A stretch of 2,683 nucleotides of DNA, from the IMG/VR virus record IMGVR_UViG_2609459824_000012. One strand, 5' to 3'. Of the stretch, positions 1 through 2,683 are shown in pieces. The position numbers and the translations under genes were made by a program. How positions within the stretch are numbered: position 1 is the stretch's first letter; the number at the start of each line of letters is the position of its first letter. The notes beneath the pieces are model-generated. The model was not told the origin of the DNA, ran no database searches, and worked only from the letters and a program-made list of their open reading frames with translations. The DNA is from a virus (taxonomy: Duplodnaviria > Heunggongvirae > Uroviricota > Caudoviricetes).

Positions 1-317
1 TCTCTATTAATTCATAATGTTAAGGGGTGAACAGTTTCAAAAAAACTATTCACCAACTGTTCACCACTGTTCACCCTTGAAGCTCAATAAACAATCAAAA
101 AGGTGAACAGTGAATAGTTTGGTGAACAGTTCATAAATAACTGTTCACCCTATAATATACTGATATAAAAGATATTTATGACAGGGTGAACAGTGGTGAA
201 CAGTTATTCCATAAGTTTAATTTTTGCTATCGTCATTAGTGACCGATACACATGATGGCATCCAGTCTTCTGATTCCTCCGTCAGTGTCACGTTTGAACG
301 CAAACCGTGCTTCGTTT
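1..317. repeat. Direct repeat copy A: identical to 2367-2683 (period 2366 bp); holds the iteron array and the last 27 codons of the ClpP-like CDS
   Basis: Base-by-base comparison of 1-317 with 2367-2683 found no mismatch. The repeat runs to the window edge, so its true length is unknown. Confidence 0.95.
26..202. promoter_or_regulatory. Iteron array of P4 alpha-type octamers (TGTTCACC), candidate ori/crr-like replication element
   Basis: Perfect TGTTCACC on the plus strand at 58-65, 68-75 and 142-149; perfect GGTGAACA (octamer on the minus strand) at 26-33, 102-109, 121-128, 185-192 and 195-202; one-mismatch copies at 47-54 and 109-116. The core often extends to the 10-mer ACTGTTCACC. Two adjacent pairs (58/68 and 185/195) are spaced exactly 10 bp apart. 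AT-rich spacers at 76-101 and 150-183 could act as an unwinding region. TGTTCACC is the octamer I recall as bound by P4 alpha at ori and crr. Confidence 0.7.
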
Positions 318-1000
318 TTAAACACTTCACTTATTCCATTGATGCGCTTCTGTTCATTACCAGCAATATTTGCCGCTCCCTGTGGCGGTGTAATCATTCC
401 TTTAATGGTTTCCGGCATATGTAAAAAATCTCCTGTGCGTTTCGATTCAATTCGCGCCATTGCTCTGACGGATGGCAACAATTCATCAGCAAAACCGTGC
501 TTAAGGCATTCTTTCCCATCCATCCAGGTTTCATCCTCCAGCATGGCGGTAATTTCCTGTGCTGATTTGCCCGTTTTTCTGGCATAAGCAGGGATTAACA
601 CGGTTTCCACCTTATCCAGCAAATCAGCATAATCACGCATATCGCCAGCATTTCCGCCAGAGATACCCCACGGTTTATGGATCATCATCATGGCGTTCTC
701 CGGCATAACAACACGATCGCCAGCCATTGCGACAACCGAAGCCATTGAAGCCGCAACACCATCGATATAAACCGTAATGTCTGCCGGATGATTCCGTAGC
801 AGGTTATAGATGGCGATGCCTTCAAACACATCACCACCTGGTGAATGGATCCTCAGATTGATATGTGAAACATCGCCAAGGGCTTTCAGGTCTTCCGCGA
901 ACTGCTTTGCAGTAACACCGAAGCCGCCAATCTCCTCATAGATAGATATATCCGCCGCTCCGCGAACATCCGCCGCCTTAATGGTGTACCAGTGATTCAT
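236..1000 (-). CDS. ClpP-fold (peptidase S14-like) serine protease, 254 aa, with a ~80-aa C-terminal extension; prohead-protease-like
   Basis: The translation aligns by eye to the ClpP core: HSPGGDVFEGIAIYNLL matches the ClpP NSPGG...IYD segment, GVAASMAS matches the active-site GxAASMG serine motif, MMIHKPWG matches the MIHQP histidine motif, and GFADEL sits where the catalytic Asp is expected. ATG at 1000-998 is preceded by GGAGAG (plus 1007-1012) with a 6-nt spacer. The start overlaps the stop of the upstream 69-aa ORF (ATGA, 1000-997). Confidence 0.85.
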   Translation of the reverse strand: MNHWYTIKAADVRGAADISIYEEIGGFGVTAKQFAEDLKALGDVSHINLRIHSPGGDVFEGIAIYNLLRNHPADITVYIDGVAASMASVVAMAGDRVVMPENAMMMIHKPWGISGGNAGDMRDYADLLDKVETVLIPAYARKTGKSAQEITAMLEDETWMDGKECLKHGFADELLPSVRAMARIESKRTGDFLHMPETIKGMITPPQGAANIAGNEQKRINGISEVFKNEARFAFKRDTDGGIRRLDAIMCIGH

Positions 1001-1206
1001 TGCTCACTCTCCGATGCAAAACCACTCTGATTAAGCCAGGCGTTTACGGCATGCCTGACAATCTGCGCCACACCTGGTAATGGTTTGTCAGGATGATGAT
1101 TTATATGGTCGATCCTGTACTGCTTAAGGCGCATAACGGTCTGCGCATCCAGATGAACGGAACCACCCCTGATATCGCCCGTGTTCAGGTCATTAATACA
1201 ACTCAC
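997..1206 (-). CDS. Small hypothetical protein (69 aa), possibly a ribbon-helix-helix-like DNA-binding protein or protease partner
   Basis: ORF with a GTG start at 1206-1204 preceded by a strong SD (AAGAGGAAG, 5-nt spacer). Its stop overlaps the ClpP-like start (ATGA), implying translational coupling. The pattern SVHLD / AQTVMRLKQYRIDHIN / VAQIVRHAVNAWL is compatible with a beta-strand and two helices, but this is a weak call without a profile search. Confidence 0.55.
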   Translation of the reverse strand: MSCINDLNTGDIRGGSVHLDAQTVMRLKQYRIDHINHHPDKPLPGVAQIVRHAVNAWLNQSGFASESEQ

Positions 1207-1308
1207 AGTAACTTCCTCTTACTGACTAAACTGTGCACATTATTGATCGATAAAAGTGGTAGATAAACATATTTCTATCATAAAAATAGATTAATGAGAT
1301 TCAGACAC

Positions 1309-1331
1309 AAAAAAGCCGGATAAAATCCGGC
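1309..1331 (-). terminator. Rho-independent terminator (minus strand)
   Basis: On the minus strand: GCCGGA-TTTTA-TCCGGC hairpin (plus 1315-1331) followed by TTTTTT (complement of the A-run at 1309-1314). It lies about 100 nt upstream of the 69-aa ORF start. Confidence 0.65.
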
Positions 1332-1374
1332 ATAAATATCCCGCCATCTGAACACGTTTTGACACAGGCAACTC

Positions 1375-1387
1375 CACCTGGCAGGTG
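1375..1387. other. 13-bp palindrome CACCTG-G-CAGGTG, followed by iteron-like GGTGAAAAACAG
   Basis: Perfect inverted repeat seen directly, in the noncoding segment between the two minus-strand terminators. A related degenerate motif, GGTGAAAACAG, recurs at 1461-1471. Confidence 0.4.
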
Positions 1388-1582
1388 AAAAACAGATTTA
1401 TTTATATATTTCAATTAATTGCAAACTGGTCTAATGACAGGGAGAAAAAAATATTGTACAGGTGAAAACAGAAATAACTTTTAATTATCAATAAATTACT
1501 ACACATGCTGCCGCCGCCATGAAAATGCAAAAACCAGCCTTTTTCCGCGACGCTCCCGCCCCGTGGCAGGTCACTACACCGG

Positions 1583-1605
1583 GAGGACCCATAAAAAAGC
1601 CGGAT
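1583..1605 (-). terminator. Rho-independent terminator of the 81-aa/SSB operon (minus strand); possibly bidirectional
   Basis: On the minus strand: GCCGGA-GCAA-TCCGGC hairpin (plus 1589-1604, extendable by an A1588:T1605 pair) followed by a T-run (complement of A 1583-1588). It sits 25 nt downstream of the SSB stop (1631-1633). Its stem is the same as in the terminator at 1309-1331. Confidence 0.75.
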
Positions 1606-1630
1606 TGCTCCGGCTTCTGTTACTCGTTGC

Positions 1631-2053
1631 TTAAAACGGTATGTTATCCCCGTACGGATCATCATTTCCCGCCTGTTGTTTTGCTCTGCTCAGTGCATCA
1701 GTAGCCTGCCCCTGTTGGCCTTTTTTGCCGCCCGGTCGCGCCGTTCTCGCACTGATTACGCTGTCTGCGATACCCTGCCAGCCCTGCCGCGTCTCCCCGT
1801 TCTGTCCGGTCCACTGGCTCACCTGCATGTTACCCGCCACGCTCAGGAGTTCACCCTTGCGGTGCTTTGCCAGTGCTTCGGCCTGTCTGCCAAACGCCAG
1901 GACGGATAACCACATCGTCGCCGTTCCGTCATCTGCCTGGCTGCACGGAAGTGGGACCGCCATACTCGCCATCGTCATTTGTGTACCCTTGCTGGTGGTC
2001 TTTAACTGCGGGTCAGCCACCAGCCGCCCGTAAGCCGCTATCTGTGCTGTCAT
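1631..2053 (-). CDS. ssb: Single-stranded DNA-binding protein (SSB) homolog, 140 aa, compact with a short linker
   Basis: The translation shows OB-fold SSB hallmarks when compared with E. coli SSB: an N-terminal segment resembling VILVGNLGQDPE, a WLSVLAFGRQAEALAKHRKGE segment resembling [22 protein letters not shown], a WTGQNGETRQ segment resembling WTDQSGQDRY, and a C-terminal tip DDPYGDNIPF resembling the DDDIPF partner-binding tail. ATG at 2053-2051 is preceded by GGAGAG (plus 2062-2067, 8-nt spacer) and overlaps the upstream ORF stop (ATGA, 2053-2050). Confidence 0.85.
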   Translation of the reverse strand: MTAQIAAYGRLVADPQLKTTSKGTQMTMASMAVPLPCSQADDGTATMWLSVLAFGRQAEALAKHRKGELLSVAGNMQVSQWTGQNGETRQGWQGIADSVISARTARPGGKKGQQGQATDALSRAKQQAGNDDPYGDNIPF

Positions 2054-2295
2054 GCTGTCTGCTCTCCGGTTTTAACGTTGATGGTTGTCACCTGTTCCGC
2101 TTCGGCAATCTCCCGTTCTGTCAGCGTGGCAAAGTTTGCAGCTGCCGTTGTCATGAATGAGCTAATCAGTTCGGGATGTGCTTTCGCATATCCTTCCCCG
2201 GCGTTGCGGTCGATGATTTTTATCGACACCCTTAACCAGTGTTCCGTCAAATCAAGGGCGTGCGATTGTGATTTTTTTGTGTGCTTCGCTGTCAT
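2050..2295 (-). CDS. Hypothetical protein (81 aa), first gene of the SSB operon
   Basis: ORF with ATG at 2295-2293 and its stop overlapping the SSB start. The RBS is weak (GAGATAAAGCCT before the ATG). I recognise no family from the sequence. Support comes mainly from the operon layout, which mirrors the 69-aa/ClpP pair. Confidence 0.5.
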   Translation of the reverse strand: MTAKHTKKSQSHALDLTEHWLRVSIKIIDRNAGEGYAKAHPELISSFMTTAAANFATLTEREIAEAEQVTTINVKTGEQTA

Positions 2296-2340
2296 AGGCT
2301 TTATCTCACAGCAGTAAATTAAAATTTTTGCGTTTTAACC

Positions 2341-2568
2341 CTTCACCTGTTCACCTTTTGATATTTTCTCTATTAATTCATAATGTTAAGGGGTGAACAG
2401 TTTCAAAAAAACTATTCACCAACTGTTCACCACTGTTCACCCTTGAAGCTCAATAAACAATCAAAAAGGTGAACAGTGAATAGTTTGGTGAACAGTTCAT
2501 AAATAACTGTTCACCCTATAATATACTGATATAAAAGATATTTATGACAGGGTGAACAGTGGTGAACA
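2341..2568. promoter_or_regulatory. Upstream continuation of the iteron array (2341-2355) plus the copy-B iterons (2392-2568)
   Basis: CTTCACC at 2341-2347 and a perfect TGTTCACC at 2348-2355 lie just upstream of the repeat; the copy-B octamers are at 2392-2399, 2424-2431, 2434-2441, 2468-2475, 2487-2494, 2508-2515, 2551-2558 and 2561-2568. Read circularly, the array spans about 2341-2366 plus 1-205 and overlaps the likely promoter of the 81-aa/SSB operon. Confidence 0.65.
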
Positions 2569-2683
2569 GTTATTCCATAAGTTTAATTTTTGCTATCGTC
2601 ATTAGTGACCGATACACATGATGGCATCCAGTCTTCTGATTCCTCCGTCAGTGTCACGTTTGAACGCAAACCGTGCTTCGTTT
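2367..2683. repeat. Direct repeat copy B (second pass through the start of the 2366-bp unit)
   Basis: Identical to 1-317. Consistent with a circular 2366-bp molecule drawn past its junction or with a head-to-tail tandem array. Confidence 0.95.

Follow-up and report, generated by a model that had tools for sequence, protein, structure and literature searches.

The 2,683-nt virus record IMGVR_UViG_2609459824_000012, referred to below over its whole length as the window, is most likely a loop contig that a super-read/overlap assembler built around an internal piece of a phage-inducible chromosomal island (PICI), a satellite lodged in a lambdoid prophage of Escherichia coli. A 2,366-bp unit of this island is joined in the window head to tail to itself, and in our view there is about an even chance that this join reflects an internal tandem duplication in the integrated island. 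The element belongs to a known kind, and the rearranged copy of it described here was encountered a single time, in a draft assembly of short reads.

The window is a contig built on a single non-native junction

The first and the last 317 nt of the window (w1-317 and w2367-2683, where w denotes a window coordinate) are exactly identical, giving a period of 2,366 bp with zero mismatches across the overlap, as an earlier note made from the sequence alone had described. An exact repeat of 317 nt cannot arise by chance. The first copy contains the 3′ end of the replication gene pri and most of an iteron origin, and maps to L001 14049-14365 (L001 being the reference locus of the E. coli B1-56 chromosome), while the second copy is natively continuous with the sequence on its left. 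When the 254-aa chimeric open reading frame (ORF) of the window was looked up in an exact-protein index, it was found in a single contig, JNPR01000109.1 (protein KDW60377.1). The window is this entire contig, contig 109 of GCA_000703825.1, a draft assembly of E. coli 2-005-03_S3_C3 from 2014. Isolates of the series were sequenced as 100-bp HiSeq 2000 reads and assembled with MaSuRCA 2.3.2, in which super-reads are handed to the Celera assembler (PMC6222053); this paper was matched to the series by the naming pattern, the strain name being absent from its main text. The redundancy of the two ends thus characterises a small contig of a draft assembly and not a sequenced molecule, and the 2.4-kb contiguity of the window is a graph inference and not single-molecule evidence.

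Complete E. coli chromosomes that match at least 80% of the unit (n = 136) always do so in two pieces. In B1-56, both w1-318 (L001 14049-14366) and w319-2683 (L001 12001-14365) are unbroken, and the window corresponds to the first interval followed by the second, with one mismatch at w1773. The native order of the unit is w319..2366 and then w1..318. Consequently, the position 2366/1, which the earlier note had taken for the junction, proved to be ordinary continuous DNA in B1-56. The only non-native junction is located at w318/319 (..GCTTCGTTTT/TAAACACTTC..), where the hits in complete genomes all end, and it links the 3′ end of pri (L001 14366) to approximately codon 227 of the protease-capsid gene (L001 12001). 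The native flanks of the junction read ..GAACAAGC/TAAACAC.. and ..TTCGTTTT/CCGTTTC.., and the native boundary sequences of the unit are ..GAAACGG/AAAACGAAG.. and ..GTGTTTA/GCTTGTTCGG... Comparison of the native flanks revealed 0 nt of microhomology at w318/319. The window end, w2683, falls one base short of a second copy of the junction. Because the window stops one base before the join repeats, it is by itself silent on whether the periodic (TAAACAC...) or the native (CCGTTTC...) continuation follows.

The junction is a singleton in all collections searched. A 37-nt junction sequence yielded 0 matches in IMG/VR, GTDB (one genome per species) and JGI metagenome contigs. A BLAST search of 5,426 complete E. 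coli genomes with a 300-nt query centred on the junction returned no spanning match, and every one of the matching records (653/653) ends exactly at w318/319. Searches of plasmid and phage records with the full unit produced partial matches only, none of them crossing the junction. Other proteins of odd length in the protease cluster have the native ..EVF/SLFGS.. sequence and are cut merely by contig ends.

Three contigs of one assembly share the unit

The exact ssb variant of the window is present in only three contigs in the exact-protein index, all belonging to GCA_000703825.1. Contig 44 (27.8 kb) carries prophage lysis genes, terS, the N-terminal part of terL and the island from int to pri, beyond which the native sequence leads into the unit; 2,247 nt of the unit are matched without a difference before this contig ends at w437. 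Contig 52 (17.8 kb) begins on the reverse strand at w2683, exactly where the reversed window also begins, matches the unit perfectly over 2,365 nt down to w319 and then continues natively through the capsid half, terS, orf93, the C-terminal part of terL and the portal gene. In this strain, the prophage thus contains the entire island, and the window, consisting of the unit, the junction and 317 nt, represents the unit a third time and redundantly. The single-stranded-DNA-binding protein variant limited to these three contigs results from w1773, which lies in ssb and is the sole difference from B1-56. No clonal sibling isolate with the island was identified through the exact variant in the same index.

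The three contigs tile as A-U, U-J-U′ and U-B (U, unit; J, junction; A and B, native flanks), the path that a two-copy tandem duplication follows. Both contig 52 and contig 109 begin 1 nt inside the unit boundary, where a branch point of the graph is to be expected, and the window is one base short of repeating the junction because the graph branches at that boundary, one branch being the native predecessor and the other the junction. The earlier note had proposed that flanking sequence diverging from the periodic continuation would argue against a circle or a tandem array; such flanks are indeed present for at least one copy in the strain, as contigs 44 and 52 have native ones. Since a unit with native flanks and identical sequence is found in the same assembly, a circle cannot be the sole form present. 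The other contig ends are less easily explained. No exact repeat of at least 14 nt accounting for the end of contig 109 at w1 or that of contig 44 at w437 was detected in the approximately 18 kb of visible flanking DNA, and no hotspot of mosaic boundaries coincides with either position among relatives. These ends may result from assembler mechanics or may hint at a third related element elsewhere in the genome.

The unit contains a predicted origin and a putative cos site

The predicted replication origin (w2296-2582, in part repeated at w1-216) spans the complete pri-orf81 intergenic region of 287 bp. Its iteron, TGTTCACC, occurs in nine exact copies and one near copy (unit coordinates 2348, 26, 47, 58, 68, 102, 121, 142, 185 and 195), in both orientations and around AT-rich stretches, compared to 0.07 expected by chance. 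It is the only iteron cluster of the whole island and lies entirely within the unit. In Gram-negative PICIs (GN-PICIs), ori is located immediately 3′ of pri and has iterons flanking AT-rich DNA (Fillol-Salom et al. 2018, PMC6092414), and the island has the same arrangement, with pri followed immediately at its 3′ end by the predicted iteron origin. In the model island EcCICFT073, pri together with ori suffices for plasmid replication (PMC6092414). The unit does not qualify as an autonomous replicon: its own initiator is absent, only the last 33 codons of pri being present.

The putative cos site, cos1 (w1358-1598), has an 80-nt core at w1519-1598 and a probable cleavage point near w1561. It shares 94.6% identity with bases 1-204 of the phages cdtI and Tritos, the records of which begin at the equivalent of w1561, just upstream of terS. 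Three copies of the core are found in L001, namely, cos1 (window 1519-1598), a second island copy and that of the helper, the latter two at L001 10665-10744 and 21820-21899. The island core is approximately 89-91% identical to the cos of the helper prophage, and 35 nt of cos1 (w1536-1570) are identical to the helper prophage's own cos in the strain. The presence of the helper's cos sequence, a GN-PICI feature, thus appears to hold for this island as well. Within the island, cos1 is located between ssb and orf69, inside the unit, and the other copy is upstream of the island's DUF1441 terS. The two putative sites mirror the two functional cos sites of EcCICFT073 (PMC6092414). Both the predicted origin and the putative cos had been passed over in the earlier note.

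Tandem duplication and competing explanations

A circle and a head-to-tail tandem array, the two readings considered from the outset, are still the two compatible with a segment whose end is joined to its own start. Deletion and inversion are excluded as causes of w318/319, because the join leads from a downstream point to one further upstream on the same strand. A tandem duplication, on the one hand, and a circle accompanied by a chromosomal copy, on the other, are both represented by the graph A-U-B plus a U-to-U edge, and only read depth separates them. The junction is presumably real, because without microhomology a k-mer/overlap assembler cannot invent a join that lacks spanning reads.

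If the island underwent an internal tandem duplication, its order would be pri, then ori-orf81-ssb-cos1-orf69-protease′, then pri′ 3′ end-ori-orf81-ssb-cos1-orf69-protease-capsid, and then terS. Such a duplication would spare pri and the capsid gene and would add a second origin, ssb and cos as well as a truncated, protease-only ORF. It would have arisen by illegitimate (homology-free) recombination, plausibly during multicopy or concatemeric replication of the island in a previous host, and the duplicated island, once transduced and integrated, would have been passed on. No expression of island genes is needed for a duplication to persist stably in a colony-purified isolate. Homology-free tandem duplications generated by illegitimate recombination are classical in phage lambda and go back to the literature of the 1970s. 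The window resembles them, and the collapsed, seemingly circular form that they take in short-read assemblies, in having a head-to-tail, homology-free junction in a phage-like element and overlapping contig ends, and differs from them in that the duplicated block here happens to include an origin and cos. Capsid size does not rule out the additional 2.4 kb, because GN-PICI DNA enters full-size capsids in concatemeric form (PMC6092414).

Several observations weigh against the tandem duplication. The junction is known from a single assembly only, and a comparable duplication of the region is present in 0 of the 5,426 complete E. coli genomes. The sequences directly show the period, the unique junction, the identity and gene content of the segment and its native flanks, and from these the read support for the junction, the copy number of the unit, the tandem topology and the origin of the event are deduced. 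The contig ends at w1 and w437 match no repeat seen. Furthermore, estimates from segment lengths indicate that a random 2.4-kb duplication in the island would include the origin with a chance of approximately 0.2, and the origin together with cos with a chance of approximately 0.1; that both sites fall in the duplicated segment therefore favours an origin-dependent explanation.

The explanation of this kind is a 2,366-bp ori+cos mini-circle, a natural mini-replicon resembling a cosmid, which would have been formed by homology-free deletion or excision and would retain the whole iteron origin, ssb and a cos site without any replication gene. Its replication would depend on Pri provided in trans by the integrated full-length island, and the helper terminase could package it in concatemeric form, so that it would behave as a defective parasite of the satellite. 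We regard it as unlikely, despite the following points in its favour. The unit holds the only iteron cluster of the island in full, together with a cos core identical to that of the helper over 35 nt, and the breakpoints lie in coding sequence on both sides, sparing both cis sites. A full-length island, a potential source of Pri, is encoded in the same assembly, the assembly graph would be the same as for a duplication, and a related island is on record as a 10.79-kb circular 'plasmid'. It is also established that an origin and cos on a small circle can replicate and be packaged as concatemers, as in cosmids. In the case of EcCICFT073, pri and ori drive plasmid replication, and plasmids become transferable when a PICI cos site is cloned into them (PMC6092414). 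On the other hand, a circle devoid of pri, int and att would require continuous expression of Pri through colony purification, and the replication genes of PICIs and P4 are repressed until helper induction. In addition, a homology-free junction represents a one-off event and would not re-form independently in each spontaneously induced cell. The lack of a second example of w318/319 in any collection searched likewise counts against the mini-circle, and a literature search for internal duplications or ori-only derivatives of PICIs identified no relevant precedent.

An artefact or a minor-population signal, that is, a chimeric library fragment, an assembler or gap-closing error, or a rare rearranged molecule, present in a small proportion of the cells (as might occur during spontaneous induction) and promoted to a contig, is a rather improbable source of the window. 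The junction is a singleton, restricted to one contig in one 2014 draft of 100-bp reads, the assembly is redundant at this place, with three contigs sharing 2.2-2.4 kb, and the ends at w1 and w437 lack an explanation. The authors of a survey of helper-embedded PICIs (HE-PICIs) also flag assembly artefacts arising from partial PICI activity (PMC10111431). Against these considerations, no sequence is common to the two sides of the join, which excludes a mis-overlap, and random chimeras do not recur at one position. Error correction in MaSuRCA/QuORUM removes low-count k-mers, which would also act against such a signal. A restriction-ligation product was considered and rejected: the DraI site TTTAAA at w317-322 is cut between 319 and 320, not at the join, and is absent from both native flanks.

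Quite improbable, in turn, is the strongest version of the circle, in which the unit would be a heritable 2.4-kb ori+cos mini-circle, a third-tier parasite devoid of genes for replication, integration and packaging, using Pri in trans and packaged by the helper terminase as concatemers of approximately 19 units. To the same small degree we would credit its description as a natural cosmid, or a defective interfering genome, of a satellite living inside its helper prophage. Like cosmids, the unit pairs an origin with cos, and cloned PICI cos sites do confer transfer (PMC6092414). Unlike lambda dv, which has its own initiator genes, and unlike cosmids, which have a plasmid replicon, it lacks an initiator and would be wholly reliant on the island Pri in trans.

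Finally, it is very improbable that the junction belongs to a second locus, a rearranged or degenerate island remnant natively containing protease′(1-227) followed by pri-3′-ori, which was merged by the assembler and in which the sequence to the left of w1 would diverge from w2366: contig 109 does stop at w1, 318 nt past the junction, suggesting a branch point in the super-read assembler, and many E. coli genomes have 2-8 places with related island or prophage segments, but no such remnant exists in any of the 5,426 complete genomes, the hotspot of mosaic boundaries at w1 is absent among relatives, the remnant would have to match the intact island at 100% identity to the left and to the right of the join, and the exact ssb variant is confined to the three contigs already accounted for.

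The consequences differ between the readings. If the tandem duplication is correct, the window records a minor, unsurprising case of illegitimate recombination by which satellite DNA gained a second origin, ssb and cos; the copy number or the packaging of the island could be affected. If a multicopy circle were the true structure, the unit would represent the first 'hyper-satellite' from nature, an ori+cos element that feeds on a PICI, and would provide a simple system for finding out which cis sites suffice in the replication and packaging of satellites. At present, the main lesson of the window is one of caution: a short draft contig with overlapping ends resembles a tiny plasmid or an excised satellite, and here it is a graph loop around an internal piece of an island of a known type.

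The parent island and its prophage

The unit is internal to an island of approximately 10.8 kb, and the small self-contained element suggested by the earlier note is accordingly not supported: pri ends 102 nt inside the unit. The same note was right about the absence of initiator, integrase and packaging genes from the unit. Such genes sit just outside the segment, the island integrase being located approximately 5 kb beyond it. The gene order of the island begins with a tyrosine integrase, a small helix-turn-helix (HTH) protein, a Bro-N protein, an Icd-like protein, small ORFs, DUF4222 and Pri, and continues with the iteron array, orf81, ssb, a cos-like region, orf69, the protease/capsid fusion, a second cos-like core, a DUF1441 terS (phrog_141) and orf93. 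The integrase, with domains Arm-DNA-bind_3, Phage_int_M and Phage_integrase, is encoded at one end, and the genes are mostly unidirectional. Its 67-aa neighbour, encoded where GN-PICIs have an AlpA-type regulator, matches HTH_17 below threshold (17.8 bits versus a cut-off of 27), and an AlpA family protein is annotated on a related plasmid-borne island.

The island interrupts the GpA-type terL of a lambdoid prophage, its presumed helper, and has the same orientation as terL, which is split around it into GpA_ATPase (contig 44) and GpA_nuclease (contig 52). The terL frame ends with ..RIASFWM* on one side and resumes with ..SSWMEGPAA.. on the other, and it can be restored across an att core of approximately CTGGATG(T/G)AGGGT. 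The sites are located at about L005 3535-3549 in contig 44 and L006 4990-5004 in contig 52, and at about L001 9374 and 20189 in B1-56. The terL-att-int junction is common to 14 of the 5,426 complete E. coli genomes, and in approximately 1,380 of them terL is uninterrupted and the matches end at the att point. In the available part of its supplements, the HE-PICI survey, which lists 14 published integration sites, names terminase sites in the Terminase_1 family only (Tommasini, Mageeney & Williams 2023, PMC10111431). Judged by that part, the GpA-type terL may be distinct from all 14 of these sites.

HE-PICIs are built of Integration, Bro, Replication and Late zones (PMC10111431). By its sequence, the parent island classifies as a Gram-negative, helper-embedded PICI. 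It shares with HE-PICIs and EcCICFT073 (PMC10111431, PMC6092414) the int at its end, the Bro-N zone, the unidirectional genes and the succession of pri, iteron origin and ssb. Further features in common with these islands are the captured late genes (protease-capsid fusion and DUF1441 terS), two cos sites, the size of approximately 10.8 kb and the insertion in a late gene of a prophage. Unlike an HE-PICI, the window is only a 2.4-kb fragment of the island joined to itself. Assignment to the capsid-forming PICIs (cf-PICIs) was ruled out, as the island has only the protease-capsid fusion and the DUF1441 terS and lacks terL, portal and connector genes.

The replication module links the island to P4. 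Pri (605 aa; L001 14265-16082, minus strand) has the Pfam domains D5_N, DUF5906 helicase and Pox_D5 origin-binding domain, and is 51% identical (E = 4e-164) to the P4 alpha protein (L004 4636-6969) over alpha residues 320-771, which cover the helicase and the C-terminal origin-binding domains. The iteron octamer TGTTCACC is identical to the repeat annotated in P4 as 'ori type 1 repeat', and the array, like P4 crr, lies directly downstream of the replication gene. Thus, an alpha-type helicase with its cognate type 1 iterons is found in the island as in P4, whereas the N-terminal primase domain is not common to both: the first approximately 144 residues of Pri have no relationship to the primase domain of alpha, their sole match being a PHROG family of unknown function. 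The island also differs from P4 in having one iteron cluster in place of two (ori and crr), in lacking annotated sid, psu, delta and epsilon, and in that its late genes and cos are lambdoid and not P2-type. A P4-like satellite was ruled out on these grounds, that is, the missing annotations, the single iteron cluster and the lambdoid late genes and cos.

Genes of the 2,366-bp unit

All genes of the unit are on the minus strand. The pri fragment (w217-318) comprises the last 33 codons and the stop codon, at w217, of the gene annotated at L001 14265-16082. The next gene in the native order, orf81 (w2050-2295), encodes a conserved phage/satellite protein (phrog_1231, E = 8e-49) with no match in Pfam. 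The adjoining ssb (w1631-2053) encodes a single-stranded-DNA-binding protein of 140 aa (Pfam SSB, E = 2e-14; phrog_44). A close relative of the island, NZ_CP148328.1 (L002), was deposited as a 10,790-bp circular 'plasmid' and lacks the part corresponding to w1691-2273, that is, most of ssb and orf81. Because this relative does without both, ssb and orf81 are dispensable accessory parts of the replication zone. Apart from the pri fragment, none of the ORFs of the unit matched a replication family.

The native fusion gene encodes a ClpP-like prohead protease/major capsid protein of 637 aa, with Phage_capsid_4 at residues 335-634. In the window, it is replaced by the chimeric 254-aa ORF (w236-1000), composed of protease-capsid codons 1-227 (w319-1000) and 27 out-of-frame codons from the pri 3′ end. 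The product has Pfam CLP_protease at residues 32-175, which amounts to the complete protease domain, and is devoid of the capsid domain. Immediately upstream, orf69 (w997-1206) encodes a conserved small protein (phrog_4934, E = 2e-32), and its stop codon overlaps the protease start codon.

An Rfam scan of the unit gave only sub-threshold miRNA-type matches on iteron hairpins, which were rejected, and a promoter scan, with 1 promoter-like site versus 5.3 expected, was uninformative. A terminator-like hairpin is located at w1315-1331. In RefSeq, a 57-aa hypothetical protein is annotated on the plus strand at w1093-1266, overlapping the minus-strand orf69. This ORF is probably spurious, because orf69 matches phrog_4934 and is translationally coupled to the protease start.

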